Positions 12,960 through 44,319 of a stretch of 64,000 bases of DNA are shown in pieces (positions within the stretch are counted from its first letter, which is position 1; every line of letters begins with the position of its first letter). The notes under the pieces are model-generated. The model saw only the letters and a list, made by a program, of their open reading frames with translations, made no database searches and was not told where the DNA came from. The stretch is from Candidatus Doudnabacteria bacterium (GTDB lineage: Bacteria; Patescibacteriota; Doudnabacteria; UBA920; O2-02-FULL-48-8). Where the stretch lies: NCBI GenBank assembly GCA_023246005.1, contig JAHFJG010000007.1, forward strand, positions 7,312-71,311. Reading direction: 5' to 3'. The position numbers were made by a program, and so were the translations under genes.

Positions 12960-12986
12960 AGATCAGATAACAGTGAACAGTTAACA

Positions 12987-13352: not shown

Positions 13353-13363
13353 TTTGTTATCTG

Positions 13364-13807: not shown

Positions 13808-13842
13808 GTTGCAAAGTAAAAAGTTAAAGGTAAAAAATAAAA

Positions 13843-14256: not shown

Positions 14257-14314
14257 TCAAATTACCAAAAAGCCAGGGCGGCTTCCCAGGCTTTTACTTT
14301 TGACTTTTTACCTT

Positions 14315-14755: not shown

Positions 14756-14792
14756 AAAAAGGTTGTAGGTTATAGTTGGTAGGTTGTAGTTA
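14756..14792. repeat. left arm of a ~35-bp inverted repeat bracketing the 4HB gene 14790-15152
   Basis: AAAAAGGTTGTAGGTTATAGTTGGTAGGTTGTAGTTA. Reverse complement of 15226-15260 begins with the same 14 bp AAAAGGTTGTAGGT and shares GGTAGGTTGTAG. Confidence 0.6.
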
Positions 14793-15152
14793 GGACTTAT
14801 CTAATTCTTGGGTCATCTTATTAAGCATGCGCATTATTTCATCCAAAAGATCAACCACGATCAAACTTTTGGCATCATTCCCAAAACCAAGCTTTTTAGA
14901 AATTATCAACTGAGTTTCTAATTCTGCGCCGGATCCATAAGCTGTGAATAAAAAATGACGGTAATCTTTTTTAGTTCCACGCTTACTACCTTCAGCAATA
15001 TTTGACGGGATCGAAACCGCACATCTACGCATTTGGGAAGTCAAACCAAATTGTTCTTCTCGAGGAAAATCTTTTGTTAATCCATAGACTGCAACCACCA
15101 GGTCTAGGGATTTTTGCCAAACAATGAGATCCTTATAAGATGATAAACTCAT
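14790..15152 (-). CDS. four-helix-bundle protein (23S-IVS protein family)
   Basis: Classic motif KDLIVWQKSLDLVVAVYGLTKDFPREEQFGLTSQMRRCAVSIPSNIAEG. Confidence 0.85.
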   Translation of the reverse strand: MSLSSYKDLIVWQKSLDLVVAVYGLTKDFPREEQFGLTSQMRRCAVSIPSNIAEGSKRGTKKDYRHFLFTAYGSGAELETQLIISKKLGFGNDAKSLIVVDLLDEIMRMLNKMTQELDKS

Positions 15153-15225
15153 ATATTATTAATTAATAATACTGAAGTACTTTAGCATTATCCTGAATAA
15201 AAATAAACCCCATGAGGAGGTCTAT

Positions 15226-15260
15226 TCTACAACCTATAACCTACCACCTACAACCTTTTA
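15226..15260. repeat. right arm of the inverted repeat bracketing the 4HB gene 14790-15152
   Basis: TCTACAACCTATAACCTACCACCTACAACCTTTTA. It abuts the stop codon of the upstream gene. Confidence 0.6.
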
Positions 15261-16730: not shown

Positions 16731-16736
16731 ATTTTT

Positions 16737-19640
16737 TTATTTTGCATGTATATAGGCTCGTTTCTCTTTTCCTGCGGAATCTTTTTCGTCAGGAATATAG
16801 CCAGAAGGCCTCCAGCTCATGTCTTCCGGTCTTGTGTCTGGAGCCGGCGCGCCAGACCCGCTAAAATGCTTGAATGCCGCATCTAATTTTGAATCTCCTG
16901 AAGCATCGGCTAATTTTGTTCTTCCAAAATCAATCAAGGCGCTCATAGTTTCTCTATACTCTTTCTGCACTTTAGGATCTTGAATCAAATTAGCCGCCTC
17001 AAATATACGTTTCACATTCTGCGGCTTAGCCGCATTCATGGCTTGGTTCGCATTCATTTCATTTCTATTCACCCGGTTTTTGATAGCCTGATAATTAGTC
17101 ATATAATAGGTCAAACCAACTTCGTTGATGATCGAATCTCTTTTACCGCTAACGCCATAATCAGCAGCAGGAACTTCGTCGTAGAATATCAAACGGTTAC
17201 CTTCTCTCGTCAGCTTGGAGTCGTCTAGTTTAGCGTTCTCAGCAGCCTGTTCATTTTTTCGATCCTGTGCACTCTTCATCTCCAGACGGCCGTGTTTCGA
17301 TTCGTACATACGCATAATCGTCCTGTGTCCGCGTTTCTCAGCCAGATCACTGACATCACTCATGATTAGCATAGAACCTTGTTCACCCATGCCTAACTTC
17401 TCTTCCAAAATTTGTTTTCTGAAATCATCCATGCCTTCTGCCGAATAAGTCATGAATTCTCCAGCTTTATGTTGCTTTCCGTCAGCACCGATCATGTCTC
17501 TAGTATATTGGGTTTTATTTACCAATTCGTTATCATTATACGTGTCTGTCAGGTGCATAAGAATTGCGTTTGCCCGAGCTTGTTTACCCTCTTCTACGGC
17601 GCTATTAAATAAATCCACTAACTCATGCCAGTTATCAGTAAGAATATTTTTCTTCTCCTCATCCATGGCATGCCGGATCTTTTTCTGGGTAAAGTAATCG
17701 TCTGGATACATCAATGATTGTCCCTTCAACTCTGTCGCCCTTGCTCGGGCGAGTATCTGTTCTCTTGACTCCGTACCAAATGCTTTTTCTGCTTCATCGG
17801 CTTGGTCCAAAAGAGCTTGGGCTTTGACGCGCTTATCGGTTATTGCCAGATCCTTAGCTGCTTTTCCGTTTACATCAATAGCTGGCAGGGCTGCCTTTTC
17901 TCTCTCCAATTGCCTTGCTTCTTCTAGAGCTTGTTGTGCTTGCTTACGCAACTCCAATGGTGCATTCGCCTTTGTTTTTAATTCTTCCGCATCATGTAAT
18001 AATTCTCTTCCAGTTTCCGATCCACCGCCACGAGCTTTTTTTATCCCGCCCTTACCAAAATACCGCTGAAAAAAAGTAACTGGCGAAGCAAGGGCAGAGC
18101 CTTTTTCATATGCTTTGGTCATTCCCGCAGTTTCTCTAGCCGCTCTATTAATCTCCCGGGATTCTTTCCAACCCTCAATCCATTTCGCAGGTCGAATTTC
18201 TCTGCCGGTTCTTGCCTTATAGACCTCCGCCCCATAATTGGCTCCAGCCTTGACTCCTGCCCAAGCCCCTTTCTTCATCAAATTCTTGGCTCCACTGACC
18301 CCGCTCATTATCATATCCCCCCCCACCATCCCCGCTTGCTTGGCCACCAATACCGCGGCTGCCAAAAATGCTATTTCAATAAAGTAAATAAATGCAGTGC
18401 CATTTCCTTGGCCATTCTTCCAACCTGTCCAACTAAATCCATCTGATATAACTAAAGTATCTAATCTAATCATAAACAAAGCCACTGGCGCCCAAATCAA
18501 ATATTTAAGAAAGTGACTCCACCATTCTTCTGCGTATTTTTTGGTCGCCGGCAGAATATTTGCCACATAAGCAATAGGTGAAAAAATAATCAAAATGTAC
18601 AAACCCACAAGCCGGATAATAAACATTCCAGCCAGAGCTATAAATACAACTGCAGATACAAGCTGATAAAAGATTTTTCCTAAACTTAAAACAAGAGCTG
18701 TTGATGATCCTCCTGTAACGATAAGTCTAAAATCTTCCGCAGGCCAAGCCTGAGCGAAAGCCGTAGAAGCAATCTGTTTTCCCATTCCATCTTGATAAAA
18801 CACCGCGGCCAAAAAATTCACGGCATTCATGATAGTAACTGCGATAACTTGACTAAAGTTAACTAAAAGAGCCGCTATTATTAAATCTCTGAGCAAGTGG
18901 CCATATTCTTGATAATTTTTCAATCGTAAAATTACACCAAAGCCAATGACTATTAATGCCAAAATAAAAAACATATTACAGATATCGCGGACGACCATCC
19001 AGCCAATATTAACCGCTCTTGGCAAAGTCGTAATATTGATTATATTCCCCACAACTTCGCTGAAAATACTACCGGCAATAGAAGTCACAATTGCCAATAC
19101 TGCTGAAATAATTGAAGCTACGAAATCTAAAATCCATCCAATCACTTGACTGATAACATTAGCGGGGTCTTGAAATTTTTTCATATCAGCTGCTGCTTCA
19201 GCTATTCCTGTTTGATTTATTCCAGTTCCATTGACTATTGACGCTCTAACTGCTTGCATCTCAATCGGTATTTTTGTAATATCTTGAGTTGATGAAATGC
19301 CATCTGATAGAACTGGCCAGCTACCTGGCGCAGTTTCACAATAAGGTTCAGGTATTCCGCCTGTAGCAATTAATCCCCAAACTGCTCTGTACTTTTTCTG
19401 AGAGGCCTGTAATAATTTATCGCTCAATGCTTTACAGCCTGCTTCATTGGTTGCATTATCATAATCAGCTTTAGTAATAGTTACATTTGTTGTTGGCGCT
19501 GGCGTGGGAGCCGGGGCTGGAGCTGGAGTTTGCCCAAACGCAAAATTGGCAAGCAGAAGATTGGCCAGTAGAATTGCTGTTAAAATTTTGGTTATGCGGT
19601 TGAATTTTTGTTTTGGTTTCACTTTTGGAAAATTAGTCAA
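16737..19640 (-). CDS. VirB6/TrbL-like polytopic membrane protein with long hydrophilic C-terminal region
   Basis: Signal peptide plus PAPAPAPTPAPTT linker, at least 6 TM helices in the central part, and a long charged coiled-coil C-terminus, next to virB4. No searches run. Confidence 0.45.
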   Translation of the reverse strand: MTNFPKVKPKQKFNRITKILTAILLANLLLANFAFGQTPAPAPAPTPAPTTNVTITKADYDNATNEAGCKALSDKLLQASQKKYRAVWGLIATGGIPEPYCETAPGSWPVLSDGISSTQDITKIPIEMQAVRASIVNGTGINQTGIAEAAADMKKFQDPANVISQVIGWILDFVASIISAVLAIVTSIAGSIFSEVVGNIINITTLPRAVNIGWMVVRDICNMFFILALIVIGFGVILRLKNYQEYGHLLRDLIIAALLVNFSQVIAVTIMNAVNFLAAVFYQDGMGKQIASTAFAQAWPAEDFRLIVTGGSSTALVLSLGKIFYQLVSAVVFIALAGMFIIRLVGLYILIIFSPIAYVANILPATKKYAEEWWSHFLKYLIWAPVALFMIRLDTLVISDGFSWTGWKNGQGNGTAFIYFIEIAFLAAAVLVAKQAGMVGGDMIMSGVSGAKNLMKKGAWAGVKAGANYGAEVYKARTGREIRPAKWIEGWKESREINRAARETAGMTKAYEKGSALASPVTFFQRYFGKGGIKKARGGGSETGRELLHDAEELKTKANAPLELRKQAQQALEEARQLEREKAALPAIDVNGKAAKDLAITDKRVKAQALLDQADEAEKAFGTESREQILARARATELKGQSLMYPDDYFTQKKIRHAMDEEKKNILTDNWHELVDLFNSAVEEGKQARANAILMHLTDTYNDNELVNKTQYTRDMIGADGKQHKAGEFMTYSAEGMDDFRKQILEEKLGMGEQGSMLIMSDVSDLAEKRGHRTIMRMYESKHGRLEMKSAQDRKNEQAAENAKLDDSKLTREGNRLIFYDEVPAADYGVSGKRDSIINEVGLTYYMTNYQAIKNRVNRNEMNANQAMNAAKPQNVKRIFEAANLIQDPKVQKEYRETMSALIDFGRTKLADASGDSKLDAAFKHFSGSGAPAPDTRPEDMSWRPSGYIPDEKDSAGKEKRAYIHAK

Positions 19641-29224: not shown

Positions 29225-31027
29225 CTACTGCACTGCTGTTCCGCGAGCATTCATGACATCATCATCAATATCACTGGTGGAGACAGAATTGATCATGTTA
29301 GTTTGAATCGGTAAATTGACAAAGGTATCAGTACCGGTTGCCTGAACATTGCCAAGTAAATTAATAAGCTTACCGCGATCTGCTTCGTTTGGCGTGACTT
29401 CAATTTGGAAACTAACTTTCAACGCAGGAATAAATTTGCCGGTAAAAGCGCCGAGAGTTCCGATGTTCCAGCGGATTTTGCCAGAATTAGGATCATAACT
29501 TAGCCGGTTTTTTTCTGAATCTGGAACAATCGCGTTTTTCCAAGCTAAAGGAGAAAGCGGCATTGAGGCCGTAACTAAAGTGTCTGACAAATCATTGCTT
29601 AAATTAGTCAAAAGAAAAGTCATTTCAAACAAAGTCGATTTCCCAACCTGCATCGGAGCAGCGCCTGACAAATAGTTGCCATTAACCGTTAAACCTAAAC
29701 TGGAAATTAATTTCAATTCTGAATTGGCGGCTTTGGTCGGCGTGGCAATTTCATCAGAAAAAATTGATCCCGAAGCGGTAATTGTTTGATTTTTAAGATT
29801 AGTCGATAAATCGCTTTTGACTGGTACTGTAAAATTAATTTCTCCTTTTTCGGTTGGAGACAAAACTGTCAGATTGCTCAATGTCGCCGATTTCCAAGTC
29901 AGAATATTGCCAGTAATAATCGCATTCTGGGCTTGAATGTGGGTTAAGTCTAACGCTGGCCCATCCAATTTGATGGTAATCACCAAATTGCTCAATCCAA
30001 TATTGCCTTGATTGGCATATTGCAAGGTATAATTAATCGTATCTCCAAGCTTCACAAAATTATTTTGTTGGGTTTTGATAATCAAAGCGACCGAAGACGG
30101 AATTATTTTAAATGTCGCGGTCGCGGCAATTTGCGGCGCAAAAGTATTATTAATCAGCTGTCCTAAATCAGCGCGCACAAGAGCGTCTTGCGATGAATCG
30201 CCGGTGAAGCTGCCTGTAATGTCAATGCTAGCTGTATTGTTAGCGCCAAGCTTGCTAATATTCCAGATATTTTTGTTTTTAGTCGGAGGTGGATTAGAAG
30301 AAGTAAAACTAAAGCCTGCTGGATAAGTCAATTGAACCGCTAAATTATCAAAATCCTGGGACGAAACGTTTGTAAAACTAACTATGAAAGTAGCGTCTTG
30401 GCCATTTACAACATCAACCGGCCCATTAACGTCCATAGTCAGATTGGGAGGTAAAATATTGGTTATCAGGCTTTGTTCTGCCAAAAATTCCGAATTAAAA
30501 TTTGATAATTTATAATGCAAACGGGCTTTAATTTCCTTACCCTCGCCAGTTGAACCTGAAAGTTTGCCGCGAATCATCACCTCGCCGTCTTGGCCTTGCT
30601 TTAAAATCGGCAAATTAAAAGTCTGGCCGGAAGAAGAAACGGCTGTCGGAGTTGCTGATTTAAATTTAAAACCAGTTGGATAAAACATTTCCAGAGAAAT
30701 TCCGACTAAGTCGGCATTTTCACCATTGCGGTAGACGATATGATACTCGGCTTCATTGTCTGAAGTTAACTGGGTTGGGCCTTTAACAAAAATCAAAACA
30801 TTAGTCGAGGTTGGGCTGGGCTGCGCGTTTGAGCGAAACAAAAAATACCAAAAAATACCAAATATAAGGATCAGCAATCCGATTGTTCCAAAAATCAATT
30901 TTGGATTTTTAAAAAATTTCTTTCCGCCAGAGACGCCCGCCTGCCCGGCCGGCAGGGATCCGCCTTCCGCGGACCAACCAGTGGGAAATTCGGCTCTAGT
31001 TTTGTCGTCTAATATTTGGTCGTTCAT
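29225..31027 (-). CDS. membrane-anchored surface protein with tandem Ig-like (DUF11/CARDB-like) repeats
   Basis: The N-terminus carries an R1-type motif (GGSLPAGQAGVSGGKK) and a TM helix, followed by several roughly 100-aa beta-rich repeats. Confidence 0.4.
   Translation of the reverse strand: MNDQILDDKTRAEFPTGWSAEGGSLPAGQAGVSGGKKFFKNPKLIFGTIGLLILIFGIFWYFLFRSNAQPSPTSTNVLIFVKGPTQLTSDNEAEYHIVYRNGENADLVGISLEMFYPTGFKFKSATPTAVSSSGQTFNLPILKQGQDGEVMIRGKLSGSTGEGKEIKARLHYKLSNFNSEFLAEQSLITNILPPNLTMDVNGPVDVVNGQDATFIVSFTNVSSQDFDNLAVQLTYPAGFSFTSSNPPPTKNKNIWNISKLGANNTASIDITGSFTGDSSQDALVRADLGQLINNTFAPQIAATATFKIIPSSVALIIKTQQNNFVKLGDTINYTLQYANQGNIGLSNLVITIKLDGPALDLTHIQAQNAIITGNILTWKSATLSNLTVLSPTEKGEINFTVPVKSDLSTNLKNQTITASGSIFSDEIATPTKAANSELKLISSLGLTVNGNYLSGAAPMQVGKSTLFEMTFLLTNLSNDLSDTLVTASMPLSPLAWKNAIVPDSEKNRLSYDPNSGKIRWNIGTLGAFTGKFIPALKVSFQIEVTPNEADRGKLINLLGNVQATGTDTFVNLPIQTNMINSVSTSDIDDDVMNARGTAVQ
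30930..30965. repeat. R1 mini-element copy (long variant) in the 5' coding region of 29225-31027
   Basis: Minus strand GGCGGATCCCTGCCGGCCGGGCAGGCGGGCGTCTCTGGCGGAAA. Confidence 0.55.
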
Positions 31028-31602
31028 CAGATTGAAATTAAGAATAATTCGGATTTAATGTTTCGCTCTAAAATATACTCAATAAACTTATTGATGGTAT
31101 GATGATTAAGCTGATCAACATCCTTCGGGATTTTAAAACCTAAGATCTCAAGTAATTCTACACAGAAGGAGTCCAGTAATCTAAAATACTGTTCCGAGTA
31201 ATTCTGACGGTCAAGGTTATAAAAAAAATCTGTCAATAAATTATAAGCCTCCGGATTCGGATGTTCGTCTGCTGTCATCTTCAGCATCAATTCTGCGGCA
31301 TAAAACGCAATCGCGGTTTTTTTAAGGTCTGTACGCAAGCTATTGAATTGCCGTACAGGCTTGGCTCCAATCAATGTTGGCAAATGCTTGCCAGCCAGAT
31401 ACAGTTCAACTTGGGCCAAATCCTGACACGCGTAATTAAGCTTGCTGGCCGGCTTGCGCAATGATTTGGCTAAAATGCGGACTTTGCCAGCTTCTTGGGT
31501 CCAGCAGCTAACTATTTGATCGGCTTCCCTGTAGTTTTGTTTCTTGAGGATTATGCCTGTGAGTTTTTTGTATTTCATCGTAAAATTTCTAACGGGATTC
31601 AT
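31027..31602 (-). CDS. recO: DNA repair protein RecO-like
   Basis: N-terminal OB-fold region KLTGIILKKQNYREADQIVSCWTQEAGKVRILAKSLRKPASKL. Length and context fit. Start overlaps the ileS stop. Confidence 0.55.
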   Translation of the reverse strand: MNPVRNFTMKYKKLTGIILKKQNYREADQIVSCWTQEAGKVRILAKSLRKPASKLNYACQDLAQVELYLAGKHLPTLIGAKPVRQFNSLRTDLKKTAIAFYAAELMLKMTADEHPNPEAYNLLTDFFYNLDRQNYSEQYFRLLDSFCVELLEILGFKIPKDVDQLNHHTINKFIEYILERNIKSELFLISI

Positions 31603-34600
31603 TATTTCTTTAAAGCAATGGTCACTTTTTTGTCGCCGATCATAATCTCTTCCCCGCCACTTAACCCCGTTTCTCCATTTATTCCCTTTATGTACGTCTT
31701 TTTTGTATCAAACAGTTCAAATGCAGCTCTTAATTCCGCGTCATCTGTATCATACGATAAATTGACCGATTCGCCAACCTTAAGTCCCGATTTTTTGCGC
31801 ATCTCTTGCACTGCTCGTTCCAGCTCGCGAGCCAGGCCTTCTTTTTTCAACTCTGGAGTAATTTCTAAATCAAATTCAAGCTTGTCCCCCAACTTAACTG
31901 CCTTAACATTCAACTCATCAGCTAAAATTTCCTCAAATTCTTTTGCTAATTTTTCTTTAGCATTATAAACAACTGACGCCAGTGGCTGTCGCAATTTTAG
32001 ATTCGAGGACTTTCTCAACGCATGACCTTGCTCGACGAGATTTCTGACTAACCGCATTTGATCCAAAACTGTTTTTTGTTCCTTGCTCAATTCTTTCTTT
32101 TCTGGCCAAGAAGCTAAATGGACTGATACCGTTTCTGTCTTATGATTCAAATTCAGGTAAATCATTTCCGACATATAAGGCATAACTGGCGCAGAGACTT
32201 TAGACAAAACCAAAAGTGCGTGCCGCAGAGTTCCAAAAAAATGGCTGTCTTTGCGGCCTCTGCTTCTTCGCAAATACCATGTTGAAAGTTCATTGATGTA
32301 ATCTTCTATCGCTCTTGTGGCTTTAACCGTGTTATACCCGTCAAGCTGATCGGTTACCTCGTTTACCAATTTTTGTATCTTAGCAACAATCCATAAATCC
32401 AAAACATTCGTTAAGTCAGGCTTGTATCCGGCCGGTTTCGGTTCCCATCCGGCTTCGTTGGCGTATGTTACGAAGTAGTTAAAGATGTTCCAAAGAATCA
32501 AAATATTTTTGCGATAAACAATTCCTAATTCTCTTTCGTTGAAATCTAAATTCTCGGCTTGCATTACTGGCGAGCTCATCAAATAGAATCTCAACGCATC
32601 AATTCCGTACTTTTCAATCACTTCCCACGGATCCGGATAATTATTTTTTGACTTGCTCATCTTGGAACCATCTTCAGCCTGAATCGTACCTGTCGTCACG
32701 ACATTTTCAAACGGCGCTTTGCCGAACAAATTGTAAGACACCACGTGCATGACATAAAACCATGCTCTGGTTTGCGCTATGTATTCGGCCACAAACTGCG
32801 CAGGAAAACGGCTTTCAAACACCTCTTTCTGGTCAAACGGATAGTGATACTCGGCAAACGGCATGCTGCCAGCCTCGACCCAAGAATCAAAGATTTCGCT
32901 GATTCTATGGGCATCTTTGCCGCATTGCTTGCACTTAATCACAATTTCATCAATGTACGGCCGGTGCAAATCAACAATGCTGACGTCCATTTCATAGGCT
33001 TCGCCGAGTTTTGGGTATTCCAGTTCTGACCCAAAATATTTCTGCAAAATAAACAATGGGTCGCCGTGGCCGACAACTAAAATCTTTTTTCCTTCATATT
33101 TTTGATTGATTTCTTGCACAAATTCAAGCATGCGCTTTTGCACATCCAGATTACTCTCCCCACCATCTGGTCCTTTTTCCCATCGGGCTTCAAACGGAAA
33201 TGCTTTCCAAAGTTCGTCGTAACTTTTGCCGTTGTAAACGCCGGTATTAAATTCGTGTAGACGGGCATCAAACTGCACTTCGACTGCCAATGCTTGGCCA
33301 ATCAACTCGGCCGTTTCTTTGGTGCGAGTGATGTCAGAAGCAAAAATTAAATCAATTCCTGCTTGTTTCAATCTACTACTTGCAGCTTCGGCTTCTTTTG
33401 TTCCCGTCGCGGTCAAAGAATACTTCTTTTTTCTCTCCGGAAAACAATCATTGATTCCAAGGATGTTGTTCTCGGCTTCGCCATGGCGAGCAAAATAAAA
33501 AGTATTTCGACTCAAACCTAATTCCTTGATCGAACCAACCACAGTGACGTGTCCATCTTCACATTTCCAAACCGGAATTGGATTACCCCAATAACGGTTG
33601 CGGGAAATGTTCCAGTCGGGCGCGGCTTCGACTGACTTTTGGTAGCGGCCGTGTTTGAGGTGGTCTGGAAACCAATTGATTTCTTTTTCATTAGTTTTCA
33701 GAAGTCCTGGCTTGATTTTTTGAATATTCATAAACCATGCGGGAATCGCATTGTAATAAAGTGTCGTGCCGCAGCGCCAACAATGCGGATAAGAATGTTT
33801 GTGCTGTTGCTTGGCAAACAATAATCCCCTGCTTTCCAAATCTTTCTTAATGACTTTTTCTGAATCTTTAAAATACATCCCGCGGATCAACTCTGGAGCC
33901 TTGTCATTGAACTTCCCTTTTTCATCAAGCAAAGGAACCACGGGCAAACCAACTTTTAAGCCCAAATTATAGTCATCTTCGCCATAAACTACGGCAGCAT
34001 GAACAATTCCTGTGCCCTCTTCTGTGTTCACAAAATCAGCAGCGTAAACTTTAAAAGATTTGTCAGTTATAACATCAGGAACTTCAAATAACGGCTCGTA
34101 TTCTAAGCCGACCAAATCCTTGCCTTTTAACTTCTCAAGCACCTCAAAACCATCGCGAGCCTGCGAAGCAGGCGTGGCGATCTTGTCTTGGATTGCCGCG
34201 TCGCCGCCATGACTTATACTTTGAGAAAAGCGGCTCCTCGCAATGGTTTCTGCAAGCCTTTCTTTTGCCAAAATATAAAACTCGTCACCAACTTTCACTT
34301 TCACATAATCAATATCTTCACCAACCGCTAGCGCCACATTGCCCGGTAAAGTCCAGGGCGTTGTTGTCCAGGCCAATAGATAAGTATTGGCGAATTGCGG
34401 ATTACGAATTGCGAATTTCACTGTCACGGTTTCTTCGGTCACTTCCTGATAACTGTTGTCCATAGCCACTTCAAAGTTGCTGATCGGCGTTTCGCACCGC
34501 GGGCAGTACAATAGCACACGCCGGCCTTCGTAAACCAATCCTTTATCGTAAATTTGTTTGAACGCCCACCAGACCGATTCCATATAGTCGCGGTCCATGG

Positions 34601-35057
34601 TTTTGTAAGAATTATCAAAATCAACCCAGCGGGCAATTCGCCGCACGGTTTTCTTCCACTCCGTGACATACTCCAAAACCATGCTCCGACAAGTTTCATT
34701 AAATTTTTTTATTCCCAGTTTTTCAATGTCTTTTTTGCCGGAAATTCCAAGTTTGCGCTCCACAATTTCTTCAATCGGCAGACCATGACAATCCCAGCCC
34801 CATCTGCGCCGGACAAACCGGCCTTTCATAGTCTGATAGCGCGGAAATAAATCTTTGACTGTGGAGCCTAAAATGTGTCCGTAGTGCGGCGTGCCGGTGG
34901 CAAACGGCGGGCCATCATAAAAAGTGTACGGTTTGCCGTTTTTGGTTTGCTCCAAAGATTTGTGAAAAATCTGATTATCTTCCCAAAACTTCAAAACCTC
35001 TTCCTCAAGCTTTGGAAAATCTGGCTTAGGATCGATTGGTTTGAATGTATTGCTCAT
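31602..35057 (-). CDS. ileS: isoleucyl-tRNA synthetase with an inserted histidine-phosphatase (PGAM-like) domain
   Basis: HIGH motif PHYGHIL and KMSKS motif KMSKSKNNY. Also WNISRNRYWGNPIPVW and a zinc-finger CxxC. About 170 extra residues (aa about 518-690) carry RHGEAENN and VVGHGDP motifs. Confidence 0.9.
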   Translation of the reverse strand: MSNTFKPIDPKPDFPKLEEEVLKFWEDNQIFHKSLEQTKNGKPYTFYDGPPFATGTPHYGHILGSTVKDLFPRYQTMKGRFVRRRWGWDCHGLPIEEIVERKLGISGKKDIEKLGIKKFNETCRSMVLEYVTEWKKTVRRIARWVDFDNSYKTMDRDYMESVWWAFKQIYDKGLVYEGRRVLLYCPRCETPISNFEVAMDNSYQEVTEETVTVKFAIRNPQFANTYLLAWTTTPWTLPGNVALAVGEDIDYVKVKVGDEFYILAKERLAETIARSRFSQSISHGGDAAIQDKIATPASQARDGFEVLEKLKGKDLVGLEYEPLFEVPDVITDKSFKVYAADFVNTEEGTGIVHAAVVYGEDDYNLGLKVGLPVVPLLDEKGKFNDKAPELIRGMYFKDSEKVIKKDLESRGLLFAKQQHKHSYPHCWRCGTTLYYNAIPAWFMNIQKIKPGLLKTNEKEINWFPDHLKHGRYQKSVEAAPDWNISRNRYWGNPIPVWKCEDGHVTVVGSIKELGLSRNTFYFARHGEAENNILGINDCFPERKKKYSLTATGTKEAEAASSRLKQAGIDLIFASDITRTKETAELIGQALAVEVQFDARLHEFNTGVYNGKSYDELWKAFPFEARWEKGPDGGESNLDVQKRMLEFVQEINQKYEGKKILVVGHGDPLFILQKYFGSELEYPKLGEAYEMDVSIVDLHRPYIDEIVIKCKQCGKDAHRISEIFDSWVEAGSMPFAEYHYPFDQKEVFESRFPAQFVAEYIAQTRAWFYVMHVVSYNLFGKAPFENVVTTGTIQAEDGSKMSKSKNNYPDPWEVIEKYGIDALRFYLMSSPVMQAENLDFNERELGIVYRKNILILWNIFNYFVTYANEAGWEPKPAGYKPDLTNVLDLWIVAKIQKLVNEVTDQLDGYNTVKATRAIEDYINELSTWYLRRSRGRKDSHFFGTLRHALLVLSKVSAPVMPYMSEMIYLNLNHKTETVSVHLASWPEKKELSKEQKTVLDQMRLVRNLVEQGHALRKSSNLKLRQPLASVVYNAKEKLAKEFEEILADELNVKAVKLGDKLEFDLEITPELKKEGLARELERAVQEMRKKSGLKVGESVNLSYDTDDAELRAAFELFDTKKTYIKGINGETGLSGGEEIMIGDKKVTIALKK

Positions 35058-35671
35058 ATTTTATTAATTTCCCAGAAACCGCCCGTTTGGTTTGGGTGAG
35101 CTCTCATTGCTTCATACATCTTCTTCATCGTAGCAATCTTCCATTTAGGCCCGCGTGTTGGATCAACAAAACGCATTGTTCCTTTTGACGGATATATTCT
35201 ATCTAAAACTACCACGTGCCCGTTATCTTTTGTCGGATCATCAGCAAGCGTTCCGTGATGAAAACACAGTAAGACATCAAAATCTTTCTTAGAAAGTTCC
35301 GATAAATATTTTTTAAAACCTGAGAAATTTTTAAAACTTCGGATTGATCTTAATTTCATCGTTAATGGAATGCCAAGTTTTTTGAAAATTTTGTCCGGCT
35401 CATATTTTTTCTCAAAAACTCTTGTGCCGTATCCTGCAATTGGACGAAAAGAATTAGCTCGTCGTTTGCCTGTACGCATTCGCCAAAAAAATCCAGCAAC
35501 TTTTTTAGGTACTGTAAGTCCTAGATAATAACCTAGTTCTTCAGCTGGAATAAGTGGAATTCCATGACGATACATTATTATTTGAATGGAAGTAGGCACA
35601 CAACAATAGGGCTGTTGCGTGAACGGAATGTATCTGCTATTTTTTGGAACTATGTCTTTCATAAAAAACAA
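35054..35671 (-). CDS. putative papain-like cysteine peptidase (C39-like fold)
   Basis: Q...C...H arrangement (FTQQPYCCVPTS ... CFHHG ... GHVVVLD). Weak call. Confidence 0.3.
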   Translation of the reverse strand: MFFMKDIVPKNSRYIPFTQQPYCCVPTSIQIIMYRHGIPLIPAEELGYYLGLTVPKKVAGFFWRMRTGKRRANSFRPIAGYGTRVFEKKYEPDKIFKKLGIPLTMKLRSIRSFKNFSGFKKYLSELSKKDFDVLLCFHHGTLADDPTKDNGHVVVLDRIYPSKGTMRFVDPTRGPKWKIATMKKMYEAMRAHPNQTGGFWEINKI

Positions 35672-37245: not shown

Positions 37246-38925
37246 TTACATCTCGTCCAATGGCTCAATCCCCAACAACTTTAATCCTTGGCCCAGAACA
37301 TTTTTGGCGGATGAGATCAGAGCCAGCCGAAAATCTTTTACCTTCTCGTCTTTCTCTTGGGTCACTGGGCTCTCGTGATAAAACTTATTCAACAGTGTAG
37401 CAAAGTTAAATAAATAATTTGCTAAAATGTTTGGCAGATAATCTTTCAGGCTCTCTTGTACGACCTCGGCTAATATTGATGATTTGAACAGCACTTCACG
37501 CTCGGTTGCCGAAATAGCGACATCTGTAAACTTTCCGTCTAATCCGGCTTTTCGAAGAATGCTGCTCAACCTGGCATAAGCATATTGCAAATACGGCCCG
37601 CTATCGCCTTCAAAGTCCAAAACTTTGTCCCAGTCAAATTCAATGTCGCTGTGGCGATTGCGAGAGAGGTCAAAATATTTCAAAGCGCCAACGCTCACCG
37701 CATGAATCACTTTTTCTTTATTTTTCAAATCCGGATTTTTTTCAGCAATAATCTTGGCCACTCTTTTGTTTGCTTCAGCCAGCACATCTTCAGCCAAAAC
37801 CATATTTCCTTTGCGAGTGGAGAGCACTTCACCTTTGAAACTAATGAAACCATAATCAATATGAACTCCTTCGCCTTCTTTTATTTCTCCCAACGTTTTC
37901 AAAATTGCAAAAAGTTGTTTGTAATGATGCGACTGGCGATTGTCCACCACATAAAGATGTTTGGCAAATCCTTGTTTTTTTCCGAAAATAAATGTCGCTA
38001 GATCCCGTAAAAGATAAGTTGTGCCGCCATCAGACTTGATGATTACGGCAATTCCCAAATTTTTGGTGTCTTCTCCGCCTACGGCGGACAGATTAACAAT
38101 CTGCGCTCCTTGCGATTCAACCAAAAGTTTTTTCTTTTTCAATTCTTGCAAAACCACCGGCATCTTGTCTTCATAAAAACTTTCCGGCCAGTGGTGGTCA
38201 AACGGCAAAATGTCTAAAGTTTCATTGATTTGCAAAAACTGCTTCTTGCTTTCATCAACCAGGTTTTGCCAAATCTTTCTATTTTCAGTGTCATGCTTTT
38301 CAAGCTTTACGAACTCCTGTTTGGCTTGTTCGTGGATCGATTTATCATTTTCGGCCTCCGAGTTCAATTGGGCATACAGTTTGTCATTGACTTCTCCGTA
38401 CTTCTTGTAAGCCAAAATCAAATAGCCAAACTGGGTGCCCCAATCCCCCATGTGAGTGTCTGATTCAACCTTGTAGCCCAAATACAAAAACATGCGCTTA
38501 AGAACATCACCAATAATCGCGGTGCGCAAATGGCCCATGTGCAAAGGCTTGGCAATGTTTGGCTGAAAGTACTCAAGCAAAATTTTTTCTTTCTTGTTTA
38601 TTTCTGGCTTAGGCGGTTTTTCAATCGCTTGAATTAGAACTTCATTTTTCAAAGTAAAATTTATAAAGCCCGGACCAGCGACTTCGACTGTTTCAAATAT
38701 TGTCTGGTCTAAATTTTCGATAATTTTTTTAGCCAGGTCAGCGGGCTTGATCTTCAGCAGTTTGCTGCCAACAAGAGGAATATTGCTAGCATAATCACCA
38801 AACTTCGGATCTGAAGAGTAACCAACATCAAAAACCAAATCAGAAGTTAAGCCTGATTTGGAACCCGCATCAACCAGCAATTGCTTGATCTTTTCCTTCA
38901 TCCCGTTTAGAAATTTATCTGACAT
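37246..38925 (-). CDS. argS: arginyl-tRNA synthetase
   Basis: HIGH-type motif PNIAKPLHMGHLRTAIIGD. Class I ArgS architecture and length. Confidence 0.9.
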   Translation of the reverse strand: MSDKFLNGMKEKIKQLLVDAGSKSGLTSDLVFDVGYSSDPKFGDYASNIPLVGSKLLKIKPADLAKKIIENLDQTIFETVEVAGPGFINFTLKNEVLIQAIEKPPKPEINKKEKILLEYFQPNIAKPLHMGHLRTAIIGDVLKRMFLYLGYKVESDTHMGDWGTQFGYLILAYKKYGEVNDKLYAQLNSEAENDKSIHEQAKQEFVKLEKHDTENRKIWQNLVDESKKQFLQINETLDILPFDHHWPESFYEDKMPVVLQELKKKKLLVESQGAQIVNLSAVGGEDTKNLGIAVIIKSDGGTTYLLRDLATFIFGKKQGFAKHLYVVDNRQSHHYKQLFAILKTLGEIKEGEGVHIDYGFISFKGEVLSTRKGNMVLAEDVLAEANKRVAKIIAEKNPDLKNKEKVIHAVSVGALKYFDLSRNRHSDIEFDWDKVLDFEGDSGPYLQYAYARLSSILRKAGLDGKFTDVAISATEREVLFKSSILAEVVQESLKDYLPNILANYLFNFATLLNKFYHESPVTQEKDEKVKDFRLALISSAKNVLGQGLKLLGIEPLDEM

Positions 38926-39159: not shown

Positions 39160-39609
39160 ATGCCAACCTATGCTTCCAACCGCAAAGCTTTTCATGATTA
39201 CTCAATCGAAGACACAGTTGAGGCCGGTTTGGTTTTGGAAGGCCACGAAGTCAAAAGCGCCAAGACTGGCCAAGCTACACTCACGGGCGCTTACGTCACA
39301 ATTCGGGCCGGAGAAGCCTATCTTCGCAATGCCTATATTGGCCGCTATAAACAATCAGCTGGCCTGGAAACCCATGATGAAATACGCGAACGAAAACTCT
39401 TGCTCCATAAAAATGAAATTATCCGCTTGCAAAACAAAACCAAGGATAAAGGCCTAACCTTGATTCCTCTGGAACTCTACTCTCATAAAGGTTTAATCAA
39501 ATTGAAAATCGGCGTGGCCAAAGGCAAAAAACAATTCGACAAAAGAGAATCAATCAAGAAAAAAGAATTAAAACGAAAAATCGATCGTACCATTAGAACT
39601 AAAATTTAA
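39160..39609 (+). CDS. smpB: SsrA-binding protein SmpB
   Basis: KAFHDYSIEDTVEAGLVLEGHEVKS...LLLHKNEI...ELYSHKGLIKLKIGVAKGKK, typical SmpB. Basic C-terminal tail. Confidence 0.9.
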   Translation: MPTYASNRKAFHDYSIEDTVEAGLVLEGHEVKSAKTGQATLTGAYVTIRAGEAYLRNAYIGRYKQSAGLETHDEIRERKLLLHKNEIIRLQNKTKDKGLTLIPLELYSHKGLIKLKIGVAKGKKQFDKRESIKKKELKRKIDRTIRTKI

Positions 39610-39649: not shown

Positions 39650-42600
39650 TTAATAATCAGTCGATCGATAGCCGGATAATACAGAGCTGTCCACAACTTT
39701 TATCTGGCTAAACTTATAGCCTTGAGTGATGAAATCTTCCATGGATCTAAACGGTCTAATTTCAACGCTCCTAACCACTACATAAACCGTATTGTTGTCA
39801 GCAGTCTTAAGCAATGTCCCGCTAGGATACCTGCTGATTGACACGCCTTTAATCCGAGGGCCAACAGGCGCCCCAATAGGCACTGCCAGGTCAGCCAGGT
39901 TAGCGGAAACTATCTGTCTGAACTTATTGCCCCAAGAAAAGAAAATGCTTGAGGATGGAAAAGCGTATCGGTAGCTGCGACCCATGAAATAGATTGTCCC
40001 GTTGTCATTAACTAACGTGCCTCTGGGATGTCTATGGACAATGTCTGTGACGTCAGAGCCTTGGGCAATGCTGGATATATCTGCATCTATGATATTGGAG
40101 AGTTTGTAGCCGAGACCATAGAAGACACCCATGGAACTAAAAGCTCGCTTCAGTCCATTTTCAATCACATAGATCACGCCATTATCCTTAACCAAGGATC
40201 CATCATCATATTTGGTTGTTGGAGCTGGATTAGGCGTGGGTGTGGGAGTAGGAATCGGTGTTGGCGGTGGTGGAGGTGGTGTGGGTGTCGGTGTTGGAGT
40301 GGGCGTCGGAGTAGGAGTAGGAGTCGGAGTCGGAGTCGTGGTAATGGTCAGAAAATCTTCTGCGGACCAGCCGTCCACGCCGGAATCGTAATTGATCTGC
40401 CACCAGTTGTATCCTCCCGAAGCGATAGAACCGGCAATAACCGTTCCCAAGGCGCCCGTCGGCTGCGTCCCCAAAAGTGTCCCGGTCATGGATGCCGTAG
40501 CGCGGACATTAAGAGGCCCGGAGGAAACCTGCACGCGATTGCTGATGGTGAATTTTGTGGAAGGAGTAGGTGTCGGCGGAGTATTAACTGTCACCGTCAC
40601 GGACTGACTCGTGCTCCCTCCTGCACCGGAACAGGTCAGCGTGTAGGTCGTCGTCGCCGTGGGGAACGCCGTCGAATTTCCGAAGACTGCTTGTGTTCCC
40701 GCCCATCCGCCCGAAGCGGTACACGCCGTCGCGTTCGTTGATGACCATCCGAGCGTCACGGATGCGCCCGCGGTTATGGCGTTGCTCGAAATCGAGAACG
40801 ATAAAGTGGGAACTGGTGTAGGAGTAGGAGTAGGAGATATTGTCCAACATGCGGTCATTGGCGCATCAAGATTCAGATTCTTTTTAATAGAGCTGAATCG
40901 CATACTGTTCATGACAGGACAGAAAGTCGCGGTGTTCCCGGAATATTCGGCGTTGAACACGGCCTTACCCGCATTAATGAAAGGCACAAGCGTACTGCAT
41001 TCGTTGTACTGGTTACACTGCTCATCAAGAGCCCAATCGAAATCACCAACCAGGCTCGTGACCTGACCGACGTCATTTTTGAGTCCGATGGACAACCCTT
41101 TACCGTGCGCCGTCGTGGCGAGGAAGCGATTATAAGTGATCTGGTCATTTGCGGTCAGAGGAAATCCGGTGCTGTTCGAGTAGCCATCGATATTATCGGG
41201 CTCTATGGCATCGCAACCTTTCTGCACTGCAAGGTCCATCCGCGCGTTCATGATCGGGCCCAGGATGCTCGTCTGGCGAATGTCCAGCCAATTTTCGCCC
41301 GGCCAACCGTTGCCATTGCCTTTGACCGACGCAGGGAAGCTTGCCGCGTCAGTGCGCCAGTTCTCGTAGGTTCCGGCGCTGATATAACAGATGACCTTCC
41401 TGCCTGCCGCATGGAGCGAAGTAATGGTTGTTGCGGAGTTGTCGAAAAGATCGATGTCGTAGGCCTGCGCGTTGAAACTCTGATCAACGGTCCCCGTAAG
41501 TTGCCACTGCCAAGTCGTCATCGGAGCGGGGTACCAAATATTTGCGGCGGGTGTTGGAGTCGGTGTTGGAGTCGGTGCGGGCGTCGTCGTCTTTACGAGA
41601 TAATCTTCTGCGGACCACCCGTCCACGCCGGAATCGTAATTGATCTGCCACCAGTTATATCCTCCCGAAGCGATAGGGCCGGCAACGACCGTTCCTAGGG
41701 CGCCCGTCGGCTGCGTTCCCAAAAGCGTTCCAGTCGTGGATGCCGTAGCGCGGACATTAAGAGGTCCGGAGGAAACCTGTACGCGGTCACCGATAACGAA
41801 TTTTATGGAAGGAGTAGGTGTCGGCGTTGGGGTTGGGGTTGGCGTTGGCGTGTTGCTATACAAATTAGCAGGCATAGCATTGCCGGCAGCTTCCCAGATG
41901 TACTGGGTCAACGAGGGCGAAGAGCAGAAACCCCGGGTGACGCCGGCATCCGTGCACATTTCTTTTTTAATCCTAGCTTCATTCGGCCAGCTCCAGAGCG
42001 GATTCGAAGTCAACGTATTGAATCCCGCATCACCCCAAAAAGTCCCGTCTTGCCCGTAAGCGTACATCACGTTTGCCCCATAATCCGCTCCCCCGTTCCC
42101 CGTACCCTTGAGTGACGATCCATTTTCTATCCGGGTAATGTATTTAAGCGAACCATCCGTTAAAGGATTCGTAGTTTTACAACCCACGCTGCAGGTGGCG
42201 TCACCATAAGCGGGCGTAACATTATTATCTATATAAGTTGGAGTAACCGCTCCGAAATAGCCATAGCGTCCGGATCCCGCAGCAATGAGGTTTTTCGCCG
42301 AAGAGCTACCGGCATAGTGGACATTGATAACATCTCCATTATTATTAGAAGAACTCTTATACGCCGTCAGATTCTGAAGGACCGCCTGTTGGTCGGTGCA
42401 ACCCTGGCACTGGGAGTTAAAGCCGGTCCCCCGGGGGTTCCATGCGACGTCATCCTTATAGATCGCAGCTGGATTAGTAACTCCCGAGGTATTGTCGGTA
42501 TCGGTGGTAAACGCGCTGTATTGGCTGTTAAGCGAAATACTGCCTAGCCATTCGTTGCCGCCAAAAGGATGAGTTCCGGCATTCGTGTGCCACGCCGTCC

Positions 42601-43537
42601 AAAAATCCGCGCCGCCGCCGAATCCCGCGGGCCCCAGAATATTGTCCAAAGCCATAACGTTTTGCAGCGAGGCCTGACTGGTGTTATAGATGGTGGTCGC
42701 GCTCATGTAATTGCCGGAGTTGCTCCCGCAATAATCTGCGGAGGAGTTGCAACCGTCGTTTCTTAAAATGACTCGGCGCAGAACGATATGGTCCGCATTG
42801 AGTGGAGCAAATGCCTTGCGATCGTTGCCCCAAAGCCAACTATCTTCGAGTGTGATATAAGAAGAAACAAGATTTCCATTATTATCGTTTGTGCCGATAT
42901 TGAAGACCCCGTTACCTCCGCTATTGTCCGTCACCCCTATGTTTTTGAAAAAGAGGTGGTCGCCATGATAGATGCCGACGGCGTGAGCAATTTTAAAACC
43001 TTGAAATTTAATGAACTTCTTCGTGATAGGGATCGTGCCAAGCTGGATCGTATCGATAGTCACTGCGCCATCGTTCAATGCGATGATTTTCGTCATGGCG
43101 CCGACGGCCGTACCATCTTGCGGCACACCGGAAGGCGCACCCGAATTCTGATTGATCGCACCGTTCACGGCCGAGGTATACGCTCCATCCATTAAGTACA
43201 ACGTGCCGCTGGCAGGCAGAGCCGAGAACGCCTTGGCAAACGTCTTGAAAGAAGTAGATTGAGAAGCGCCGTTATTCGAATCAGAGCCAGTCGGGGAAAT
43301 ATAATAGATTGACCCGGTGCCGGCCGCGCTGGCCACGTTTGGAGTTAAAATAACATCGGCGCCAGAAATTTGATTAAACAAAACCGTGCCAACTAATAAA
43401 GAGATGAAAATAAAAATAACCCAGTGAAAGAGAGGATATGTCTTGTGCATATGCCATTTGGAATAGCCTTTGTATTTTTGTTCCAGCATCTCGTGCAATT
43501 TTTGCATATTCTGTTTTGCTTGGTAAGCAATCTTCAA
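39650..43537 (-). CDS. giant secreted multidomain surface protein: beta-helix region, two SH3b domains, GH114-like glycoside hydrolase domain, Pro-Thr linkers, C-terminal tandem ~60-aa repeats
   Basis: N-terminal TM or signal. GH114-like YDIDLFD...VICYISAGTYENWR. Duplicated SH3b module. (PT)n linkers. C-terminal repeats TVYVIENGLKRAF...GYKLS. The central 3 kb is GC-rich. Confidence 0.55.
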   Translation of the reverse strand: MKIAYQAKQNMQKLHEMLEQKYKGYSKWHMHKTYPLFHWVIFIFISLLVGTVLFNQISGADVILTPNVASAAGTGSIYYISPTGSDSNNGASQSTSFKTFAKAFSALPASGTLYLMDGAYTSAVNGAINQNSGAPSGVPQDGTAVGAMTKIIALNDGAVTIDTIQLGTIPITKKFIKFQGFKIAHAVGIYHGDHLFFKNIGVTDNSGGNGVFNIGTNDNNGNLVSSYITLEDSWLWGNDRKAFAPLNADHIVLRRVILRNDGCNSSADYCGSNSGNYMSATTIYNTSQASLQNVMALDNILGPAGFGGGADFWTAWHTNAGTHPFGGNEWLGSISLNSQYSAFTTDTDNTSGVTNPAAIYKDDVAWNPRGTGFNSQCQGCTDQQAVLQNLTAYKSSSNNNGDVINVHYAGSSSAKNLIAAGSGRYGYFGAVTPTYIDNNVTPAYGDATCSVGCKTTNPLTDGSLKYITRIENGSSLKGTGNGGADYGANVMYAYGQDGTFWGDAGFNTLTSNPLWSWPNEARIKKEMCTDAGVTRGFCSSPSLTQYIWEAAGNAMPANLYSNTPTPTPTPTPTPTPSIKFVIGDRVQVSSGPLNVRATASTTGTLLGTQPTGALGTVVAGPIASGGYNWWQINYDSGVDGWSAEDYLVKTTTPAPTPTPTPTPAANIWYPAPMTTWQWQLTGTVDQSFNAQAYDIDLFDNSATTITSLHAAGRKVICYISAGTYENWRTDAASFPASVKGNGNGWPGENWLDIRQTSILGPIMNARMDLAVQKGCDAIEPDNIDGYSNSTGFPLTANDQITYNRFLATTAHGKGLSIGLKNDVGQVTSLVGDFDWALDEQCNQYNECSTLVPFINAGKAVFNAEYSGNTATFCPVMNSMRFSSIKKNLNLDAPMTACWTISPTPTPTPVPTLSFSISSNAITAGASVTLGWSSTNATACTASGGWAGTQAVFGNSTAFPTATTTYTLTCSGAGGSTSQSVTVTVNTPPTPTPSTKFTISNRVQVSSGPLNVRATASMTGTLLGTQPTGALGTVIAGSIASGGYNWWQINYDSGVDGWSAEDFLTITTTPTPTPTPTPTPTPTPTPTPPPPPPTPIPTPTPTPNPAPTTKYDDGSLVKDNGVIYVIENGLKRAFSSMGVFYGLGYKLSNIIDADISSIAQGSDVTDIVHRHPRGTLVNDNGTIYFMGRSYRYAFPSSSIFFSWGNKFRQIVSANLADLAVPIGAPVGPRIKGVSISRYPSGTLLKTADNNTVYVVVRSVEIRPFRSMEDFITQGYKFSQIKVVDSSVLSGYRSTDY

Positions 43538-43936: not shown

Positions 43937-44319
43937 GGGGCTGTTTAGATTCGACAAAAGTTCTTTGATAAATACTGCAAGTCCGATTAGCCTAATTTCT
44001 CGGTTAAAAAAATAAGGCAAATCATAAATGCCAATTCTTTGGTAAGCAAGATTAAGAACGCTTTTGCGTTCTCTCCTGCTTTGGCAGTCGCTTAAACAGT
44101 TACTGCCCATCTGTCCTGCAAAGTCTGTGCGCAGATCACAGGTGTTATATTATCGGACTTACTTTAGTTGACGCCTGACAGCTAAAGGACACTTAAGGCT
44201 GACCTTAAGGCGCTTTGGTCTGCTTCTATGTCTTAAGGGAAATTTTAAAGCAGTCTAAGCTTGTAGAAGTATTTGTTAAAATCTTTTGGACGGGAGTGCA
44301 AATCTCCCCAGCTCCACCA
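43937..44319 (+). ncRNA. ssrA: tmRNA (ssrA)
   Basis: 5' end GGGGCTGTTTAGATTCGAC. 3' end has T-arm GGGAG-TGCAAAT-CTCCC, acceptor CAGCTCC, then ACCA. G3-U70 pair. Candidate tag reading frame ends ...AFAFSPALAVA*. Confidence 0.7.

Follow-up and report, generated by a model that had tools for sequence, protein, structure and literature searches.

A histidine phosphatase domain within the isoleucyl-tRNA synthetase of a Doudnabacteria genome and of other Patescibacteria

Introduction

Aminoacyl-tRNA synthetases (aaRSs) are preferred hosts of domain insertion, and insertion into their connective-polypeptide (CP) loops is a known theme (PMC13114784). The CP1 editing domain of the isoleucyl-, valyl- and leucyl-tRNA synthetases (IleRS, ValRS and LeuRS) and the leucine-specific domain of LeuRS are both spliced into class Ia CP loops, act on aminoacyl-adenylate or aminoacyl-tRNA, are universal, and are essential for fidelity or activity. 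Here we describe an insertion into the same kind of loop that differs from these modules in belonging to an unrelated superfamily, in being restricted to one lineage and in having been lost repeatedly. It is a histidine phosphatase domain encoded within the ileS gene of a Candidatus Doudnabacteria bacterium, which belongs to the Candidate Phyla Radiation (CPR, Patescibacteria). The gene lies in a stretch of 64,000 nucleotides (positions 7,312 to 71,311 of contig JAHFJG010000007.1, assembly GCA_023246005.1), which we call the window and whose own numbering is used throughout.

Both parts of the protein come from well-known superfamilies. The host resembles the type-2 IleRSs of known structure (8C8V, 1ILE and 8WND; template modelling (TM) score 0.80-0.90, 30-34% identity) and shares with them the HIGH-type, KMSKS and CP1 editing motifs, a zinc-knuckle CP3 and a DUF5915 domain. 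Those enzymes have no catalytic domain in CP3, whereas in the window protein 181 aa replace the 4-13 aa linker. The insert is most like the broad-specificity phosphatase PhoE (YhfR) of Bacillus stearothermophilus (1EBB, 1H2E), a member of branch 1 of the superfamily, which is its best sequence match (E=3e-16, ~30% identity; TM 0.83) and has the same R-H-R-E-H catalytic set and the same compact size of ~180-200 aa. PhoE, in contrast, is free-standing, while the window domain sits inside IleRS and belongs to a CPR-specific subfamily linked to ileS.

Two curated families come close to the combination. The ileS_w_GNAT family (NF040702) also consists of IleRS with an extra small-molecule-modifying domain, and two relatives of the window protein, P0152 and P0131, carry both GNAT and the phosphatase; the window protein itself has no GNAT, and there is no equivalent curated family for phosphatase-bearing IleRS. 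In the Rv2228c-type RNase H/CobC-like acid phosphatase (NF005567; 74-90 bits) a branch-1 phosphatase is likewise joined to a nucleic-acid enzyme, but the fusion is end to end, the partner enzyme is another one and the window protein misses the 326-bit cut-off. An earlier note on this DNA, made by a model from the letters alone, had pointed to the insertion and knew of no other like it. We also found no description of phosphatase-bearing IleRS, in CPR or elsewhere, in the full-text literature; any suggestion that the window protein is unique fails, since the architecture is widespread in Patescibacteria sequences.

Results

The ileS reading frame of the window is unbroken from ATG to stop (31602..35057 (-), 1151 aa in the translated open reading frame (ORF)). 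Compared with insert-less relatives, a segment of 181 aa stands in place of the CP3 linker of 4-13 aa between GSIKELG and DLHRPYIDE; in the insert-less protein P0002 this junction reads ..GSVKELG-QDLQ-DLHRPYIDE... The insertion point is in the CP3 zinc-knuckle subdomain, directly after the CP2-3 linker (..DWN[IV]SRNRYWG), and the linkers at both junctions of the insert are short in the window protein. We take the CP1, CP2 and CP3 domain names from PMC7191050 and PMC7955072. CP3 topology differs among IleRSs (PMC7191050), and the CP2-3 linker lines the tRNA-CCA/reveromycin pocket of yeast IleRS (PMC7955072). The insert and its sequence features are as follows.

32973..33515 (-): inserted segment, aa 515-695 (181 aa), delimited by comparison with P0002, P0207, P0209, P0216, P0260 and non-CPR IleRS
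33009..33497 (-): His_Phos_1 (PF00300) match, aa 521-683 (Pfam, E=1.1e-33)
33465..33488 (-): RHGEAENN, aa 524-531, with R524, the predicted nucleophile H525 and N531 (R and H 99% conserved in 264 copies)
33309..33329 (-): TRTKETA, within SDITRTKETA, with the second phosphate-pocket arginine, R578 (99.6% conserved in 264 copies)
33240..33260 (-): LHEFNTG, with the predicted general acid E602 (94% conserved in 264 copies)
33057..33071 (-): GHGDP, within VVGHGDP (aa 661-667), with the second catalytic histidine, H664 (100% conserved in 264 copies)

The PF00300 match (histidine phosphatase, branch 1) scores 116.9 bits, against a gathering cut-off of 21.7. The branch-1 catalytic core is complete in the window insert (R524, H525, R578, E602, H664), and E602 aligns with the glutamate of the PhoE motif RLRE. 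In AlphaFold2 (AF2) models the insert has a predicted local distance difference test score (pLDDT) of 88-98 within the full-length protein and of 91.1 when modelled alone, a confidently predicted fold. The best Foldseek match of the insert model is PhoE 1H2E (TM 0.83, E=4.5e-14), and the next nearest solved folds are GpgP, PspA and CobC, all of them small-molecule phosphatases. A protein identical to the window protein is deposited in NCBI/ENA (P0162), and the insert is therefore no artefact of the window.

The earlier note had placed a histidine phosphatase of about 170 residues inside IleS, ahead of the zinc-finger/KMSKS part. Pfam, motifs and fold all confirm this and show a complete domain, preceded by WNISRNRYWG and followed by the second zinc knuckle and KMSKS. 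Its span of 32990..33506 corresponds to aa 518-690 and lies within the insert as we delimit it, and the motifs that it quoted are where it put them: WNISRNRYWGNPIPVW at aa 482-497, RHGEAENN at aa 524-531, VVGHGDP at aa 661-667 and KMSKS at aa 799-803. Comparison with related IleS proteins gave the same insert in many relatives and only the short linker in others. The alternative that this is an ordinary CP-type IleRS insertion carrying no phosphatase signal is ruled out by the Pfam, NCBIfam and fold results.

The rest of the gene encodes the host enzyme.

31602..35057 (-): ileS ORF, 1151 aa plus stop, type-2 IleRS with an internal phosphatase domain (ORF call, Pfam, TIGR00392, AF2)
33516..35057 (-): N-terminal part of IleRS, aa 1-514, with the first half of the Rossmann fold, the CP1 editing domain, CP2, the CP2-3 linker and the first CP3 knuckle
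34875..34886 (-): HYGH (HIGH-type), aa 58-61 (motif search)
34350..34370 (-): WTTTPWT (CP1 editing), aa 230-236 (motif search)
33999..34016 (-): GTGIVH (CP1 editing), aa 348-353 (motif search)
33585..33614 (-): WNISRNRYWG (CP2-3 linker; motif search)
33549..33566 (-): KCEDGH, first CP3 knuckle, aa 498-503 (motif search)
31605..32972 (-): C-terminal part of IleRS, aa 696-1151, with the second half of the Rossmann fold, the anticodon-binding domain and DUF5915 (Pfam, motifs)
32946..32972 (-): DLHRPYIDE (motif search)
32919..32933 (-): CKQCG, second CP3 knuckle (motif search)
32649..32663 (-): KMSKS, aa 799-803 (motif search)

In Pfam the tRNA-synt_1 match (PF00133, E=5.8e-132) is split around PF00300 and is followed by the anticodon-binding domain and the C-terminal DUF5915 domain. 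The NCBIfam model TIGR00392 ileS is likewise matched as two stretches flanking the insert, with 802.3 bits against a cut-off of 621.4. The full-length AF2 model, built on an alignment of 101 homologues, has a pLDDT of 90.3 and a predicted TM score (pTM) of 0.84. The closest PDB folds to the IleRS body are Priestia megaterium IleRS2 (8C8V), yeast IleRS with tRNA (8WND) and the Thermus thermophilus enzyme (1ILE, TM 0.90). These three match at E values of 1e-72 to 1e-86, which together with the presence of DUF5915 places the protein among the type-2 enzymes; type-1 enzymes rank lower as fold matches, at 19-22% identity. The class I and CP1 editing motifs vary little or not at all among the 101 homologues. 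Based on the conservation of the HIGH-type, KMSKS and CP1 editing motifs, the window gene looks like a complete ileS encoding a working, editing-competent type-2 IleRS. It falls far short of the mupirocin-resistance IleRS families MupA and MupB (NF000257 and NF000258; 683 and 693 bits, cut-off 1900) and of ileS_w_GNAT (289.9 bits, cut-off 1999), and Pfam detects no GNAT domain in it. The first CP3 zinc knuckle is KCEDGH, where most CPR relatives have CxxCG. Because CEDGH is also found in the insert-less IleRS2 of Actinomycetota and Clostridia (L045-L049), we consider this variant unrelated to the insertion.

In a scan that covered one genome per species, about 36 Patescibacteria metagenome-assembled genomes (MAGs) share the architecture at 33-76% identity, under labels that include Doudna-, Nomura-, Campbell-, Kaiser- and Moraniibacteriota, Paceibacterota, Microgenomates, Peribacteria and "Saccharibacteria". 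A HMMER search run exhaustively over 1.84 billion cluster representatives gave 135 matches at E<=1e-30, and all 142 long proteins among the best 150 matches are IleRS. The query contained the IleRS flanks, so this check of host proteins is biased towards IleRS and covers the 150 nearest representatives rather than being exhaustive; within that scope we saw no other host protein for the phosphatase subfamily and no end-to-end fusion to arginyl-tRNA synthetase (ArgRS) or to the IleRS N-terminus. PF00300 is present in ~5/6 of the 120 closest full-length IleRS clusters. The architecture is far beyond chance, and a chance or artefactual origin is ruled out by the continuous ORF, the identical public record and the hundreds of homologues.

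When the insertion sites are mapped onto an insert-less IleRS profile, three are distinguished: site A, the CP3 site of the window (219 proteins), site B, after aa ~747 in the HYPF...FPAQF loop (seven proteins), and site C, after aa ~880 at the junction with the anticodon-binding domain (four proteins). Two phosphatase copies are present in eight proteins, three in a Peribacteria IleRS (L040:3568-8532, 1655 aa), all of them catalytically intact, and four in tandem in P0127, a protein of 1161 aa that ends at the end of its contig. The catalytic R-H-R-E-H set is retained in 94-100% of 264 domain copies, and both arginines and both histidines are kept in every complete copy of the proteins with two to four copies. 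The catalytic residues of the phosphatase are thus under purifying selection.

At NCBI the insert-bearing proteins go by "class I tRNA ligase family protein" and their insert-less close relatives by "isoleucine--tRNA ligase"; JGI calls the former "isoleucyl-tRNA synthetase". Given the NCBI label, automated surveys could score IleRS as missing in many CPR genomes. Two loci carry labels from outside the CPR. L032 (JASGCN010000001.1), labelled Alphaproteobacteria, has a locus GC content of 36% and the CPR-type order IF3..IleRS+insert..DUF11, and L041 (CAZQWS010000015.1), labelled Bdellovibrionales, has the CPR-type order rhodanese-argS-hisphos-AOX, where hisphos is the gene for a free-standing form of the phosphatase. 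Based on their gene order and proteins, the labels or bins of both are probably wrong.

Free-standing proteins of ~188 aa, of which there are many, are the closest relatives of the insert. They share RHGEAENNI and come mostly from Moranbacteria, with some from other Patescibacteria. In all seven genomic look-ups (7/7) the free-standing gene is immediately upstream of an insert-less ileS on the same strand, and in three of the seven the two are separated by a 1-nt gap or overlap by 4 nt; one or two variable genes (hemerythrin, AOX, HIT) are sometimes found between them. The usual gene order is SmpB..IF3-L35-L20..argS-hisphos-ileS-recO-DUF11. In L034 the arrangement is similar, with the free-standing gene within 1.8 kb of ileS; L059 keeps hisphos-ileS and lacks argS, and L041 keeps argS-hisphos with no ileS nearby. 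The backbone of the window matches these split loci (SmpB, argS, ileS, recO, DUF11, LysM-M23), with the phosphatase inside ileS and not before it. A rough neighbour-joining (NJ) tree of the domain divides the free-standing forms into three clades that are nested among the inserted ones. What we see, then, is a Patescibacteria-specific phosphatase family that is inherited with ileS, either as its upstream neighbour or as an in-frame insert at three sites. The genes flanking ileS in the window are listed here.

37246..38925 (-): argS, upstream member of the CPR block argS-[hisphos]-ileS-recO (order shared by L054-L058 and L060)
35054..35662 (-): ORF of 202 aa, overlapping the ileS start by 4 nt (no Pfam or PADLOC match)
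31027..31602 (-): recO, immediately downstream of ileS as in related loci

The 202-aa ORF fills the slot that the free-standing phosphatase gene holds in other CPR lineages. By eye its sequence shows Q..CC..PTS / GHVVV, a pattern reminiscent of papain-like or C39-like peptidases. The short slot between hisphos and ileS varies in L054-L057: it contains two copies of hemerythrin, an AOX-like protein or a hydrolase of the HIT family, and L054 has a NUDIX gene downstream of ileS. Aminoacyl-adenylates and dinucleoside polyphosphates are substrates of HIT and NUDIX enzymes; this may have some bearing on these neighbours of ileS, or none. In the Moraniibacteriota locus L034 (L034:4104-5836) two ORFs lie ~150 bp upstream of the free-standing phosphatase gene, an arrangement seen in no other locus. 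By eye they resemble MtnA/ribose-1,5-bisphosphate isomerase and class II aldolase, and if so identified they would belong to the nucleoside/AMP salvage route of CPR.

The earlier note had called the insert phosphoglycerate-mutase-like. As a statement on superfamily this stands, given the PF00300 match and the fold; as an assignment to phosphoglycerate mutase (PGM) itself it does not, since the dPGM cut-offs are missed both by the insert (dPGM_arch, NF038349, 75.7 bits against 225; PRK01295, 37 against 316) and by the free-standing orthologues (dPGM_arch 85-107 against 225; pgm_1, TIGR01258, 27-35 against 81.7). Scores are also below the cut-offs for the CobC alpha-ribazole phosphatase (TIGR03162, cut-off 162.9; insert 88.1, free-standing orthologues 79-99) and the PspA phosphoserine phosphatase (NF045917, cut-off 350; insert 60, free-standing orthologues 68-89). 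SixA (TIGR00249, cut-off 74.5) reaches 37-38 bits in two of three free-standing orthologues, over the N-terminal half only, and is not among the 25 families listed for the insert itself. Because these curated cut-offs are missed by wide margins, the insert is not demonstrably a phosphoglycerate mutase. Its sequence reads as that of a PhoE-like phosphatase, in a branch-1 subfamily outside the curated dPGM, CobC, PspA and SixA families. We dropped the idea of a defence-system component, as the anti-phage models of PADLOC-DB gave no match to the insert at E<=0.01, and that of a phage origin, as a scan of viral contigs gave just three distant generic histidine phosphatases.

The phosphatase is not the only accessory domain in these synthetases. 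Among phosphatase-bearing CPR IleRSs, P0152, P0131 and P0035 have one or two GNAT domains, P0114 has a NUDIX domain in CP1, P0128 has a P-loop kinase-like domain (AAA_18/AAA_33/zeta type) at site B in the HYPF loop, and P0035 has an IS200 Y1-transposase-like segment. In CPR, IleRS seems to be a favoured site for accessory enzymes to become embedded. The junctions of the phosphatase insert share only a weak G(G/A)TTTG similarity, and we did not find this convincing as a sign of mobile-element-style insertion with target duplications.

Four insert-less proteins, each a singleton, have the junction ELG-V[ED]L[KD]-DLHRPY, which looks like a clean deletion that kept the last few residues of the insert. 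In a Paceibacterota ileS (L047:4600-7624) there are two overlapping ORFs and only the first ~18 positions of the phosphatase profile are left; either the insert is decaying here or the assembly has a frameshift. The ileS of L029 is also split into two ORFs. Where the insert is present, its divergence tracks that of the host (r=0.58).

Elsewhere in the window, the SmpB gene is at 39160..39609. A gene at 39650..43507 (-), whose 1285-aa product combines GH114 glycoside-hydrolase and SH3 domains, is adjoined by a tmRNA gene (43937..44319 (+)) with the tag ANSLVSKIKNAFAFSPALAVA. The stretch 9995..19259 (-) looks like a conjugation or type-IV-secretion-like region with small ORFs interspersed; it has a TraG/VirB4-type P-loop ATPase at 9995..11881 (-), and near it large ORFs at 15258..16730 and 16737..19259 that have no Pfam match.

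Discussion

We infer from the sequences that the phosphatase is active and that its association with IleRS is functional rather than only historical. The functional link is suggested by the placement of the genes: the phosphatase gene is nucleotides away from argS and ileS, yet end-to-end fusions were unseen and it is internal insertions into IleRS that recurred. The interpretation we favour, to which we give a probability of about 0.4, is that the domain works autonomously as a small-molecule phosphomonoesterase, that its tethering to IleRS serves co-expression and co-localisation, and that its target is a compound of nucleotide or sugar-phosphate type from the aminoacylation/AMP economy. The polypeptide would then have two independent active sites. 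The IleRS body would charge tRNA-Ile as usual, while the insert would hydrolyse a phosphomonoester through a phospho-His525 intermediate, with R524, R578 and H664 forming the phosphate pocket and E602 acting as the acid. Our best guess at the class of substrate is a diffusible small phosphorylated molecule, of nucleotide or sugar-phosphate type, that is tied to aminoacylation or the AMP economy. What the fusion would provide is obligatory 1:1 co-expression and co-localisation with IleRS and not a shared active site: site C is expected to lie far from the catalytic pocket, and the phosphatase also occurs as a free-standing protein. An autonomous enzyme is also favoured over precise coupling of active sites because the insertion sites are spread along the IleRS sequence.

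Several observations weigh against a tethered enzyme with a role alongside IleRS. Insert-less Doudnabacteria-type IleRSs are 65-78% identical to the window protein and lie in the same ileS-recO-DUF11-LysM/M23 context, and no phosphatase gene was found within 13-15 kb of these insert-less syntenic ileS orthologues. When the IleRS body is placed in a rough NJ tree, insert-less orthologues take no fewer than five distinct positions among insert-bearing ones. Given this repeated loss in close relatives, the insert is dispensable for IleRS. The earlier note had thought of an editing or regulatory appendage, for example a nucleotide or alarmone phosphatase, or of an insertion tolerated at a surface loop; the sequences set beside these ideas both a genomic link to IleRS and this dispensability. 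The insert also evolves more quickly than the host, with a mean identity to the window of 49% where the host has 69% and the catalytic core 80%. Since IleRS also hosts GNAT, NUDIX, P-loop kinase and IS200-like inserts, it may be merely an insertion-tolerant scaffold. Finally, the genes could have stayed adjacent because their ancestral order was SmpB..argS-hisphos-ileS-recO, and not because of function, and L041 has the phosphatase gene with no ileS nearby.

If history is the whole explanation, the phosphatase would be a metabolic passenger, a housekeeping enzyme with no mechanistic tie to IleRS, for example a divergent form of the PGM that is "missing" in some Parcubacteria, or a phosphoserine or sugar phosphatase. 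It would have become embedded because its gene neighboured ileS and CP3 tolerates insertions, and the essential gene would shelter it against deletion in a shrinking genome. We regard this as possible, if on the unlikely side. The best NCBIfam similarities of the insert, to the archaeal small dPGM, CobC and PspA, are to enzymes of this kind, but it falls short of each of their curated cut-offs by a factor of 2 to 5, and the bisphosphate-binding motifs of dPGM (ERHYG, WRRS, HGN) are not evident by eye in the alignment. The conserved argS-hisphos-ileS order, the several unrelated domains housed in IleRS and the repeated loss of the insert suit a passenger, as does the known preference of inserted domains for aaRSs (PMC13114784). 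According to one report, PGM itself is patchily distributed or escapes detection in the shallow clades of Parcubacteria, with excessive divergence as a possible cause (PMC7304191), which also fits. It is hard to see, however, why a single IleRS should contain between two and four active copies of an enzyme of glycolysis, and a passenger might easily have been fused end to end to ArgRS or to the IleRS N-terminus, fusions that were not observed, yet the insertions are internal and at three sites. The remaining explanations propose a tighter tie to IleRS than the tethering that we favour. One is that the domain guards or repairs, in cis, a ligand of the synthetic site, either the acceptor end of tRNA-Ile or a phosphorylated antibiotic that mimics the aminoacyl-adenylate; on the tRNA it would remove a 3'-phosphate, a phosphate derived from a 2',3'-cyclic end or a toxSAS-type 3'-pyrophosphate, and so restore chargeability. 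The position of site A is consistent with this, since the CP2-3 linker before it makes up the CCA/reveromycin pocket, as is the association with IleRS alone among the 150 nearest representatives. GNAT, NUDIX and AAA_33/zeta-type P-loop kinase domains are found in CPR IleRS and HIT beside it, and paralogues of these enzymes process RNA ends, aminoacyl-tRNA or aminoacyl-nucleotide antibiotics. The nearest folds to the insert are nevertheless small-molecule phosphatases, and we know of no member of the histidine phosphatase superfamily that acts on RNA 3' ends. Sites B and C and the free-standing forms speak against a fixed geometry, PADLOC gave no match, and why tRNA-Ile alone would need repair is left unexplained, so that we consider a guard improbable.

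The histidine phosphatase superfamily also includes protein phosphatases, and the insert could be a regulatory module, either a SixA/PGAM5-like phosphatase that lifts inhibitory phosphorylation of IleRS (by HipA-type kinases, for example) or an allosteric sensor of a phospho-metabolite. The short junction linkers of the window protein suggest a rigid mounting, P0128 also has a P-loop kinase-like insert, and free-standing orthologues show a weak similarity to SixA, although at 37 bits it is well below the cut-off of 74.5. We find such a role very doubtful: a sensor suits the free-standing orthologues and the multi-copy arrays less well than an enzyme does, the IleRS of close relatives works without the insert, and we know of no kinase that targets IleRS. 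That the insert is an artefact (misassembly or a frameshift chimera) or a decaying, dead relic can be considered effectively refuted. Some relatives are indeed decayed or split, as in the 18-position remnant of L047 and the two ORFs of L029, but the frame in the window is continuous, the identical protein is public, the architecture is found in hundreds of independent assemblies, the catalytic residues are conserved and the fold is confidently predicted.

A second, unrelated catalytic domain that is hard-wired into IleRS across a lineage, at three sites and in up to four copies, and that also exists as an operon partner, is of interest because accessory domains of aaRSs, such as editing domains and tRNA-binding appendages, have repeatedly revealed new biology. 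Given the pipeline label "class I tRNA ligase family protein", both IleRS and the phosphatase are open to miscounting in analyses of CPR genomes. If the domain acts on tRNA ends, adenylate analogues or by-products of aminoacylation, it would establish a novel type of quality control or defence coupled to aaRSs, and as a guard it would belong to a broader tendency of CPR to equip IleRS with conflict or repair enzymes (GNAT, NUDIX, P-loop kinase, phosphatase). If it is instead a sheltered metabolic enzyme, it may explain "missing" steps in CPR metabolism such as phosphoglycerate mutase, and it would show shrinking genomes protecting genes by nesting them in essential ones.

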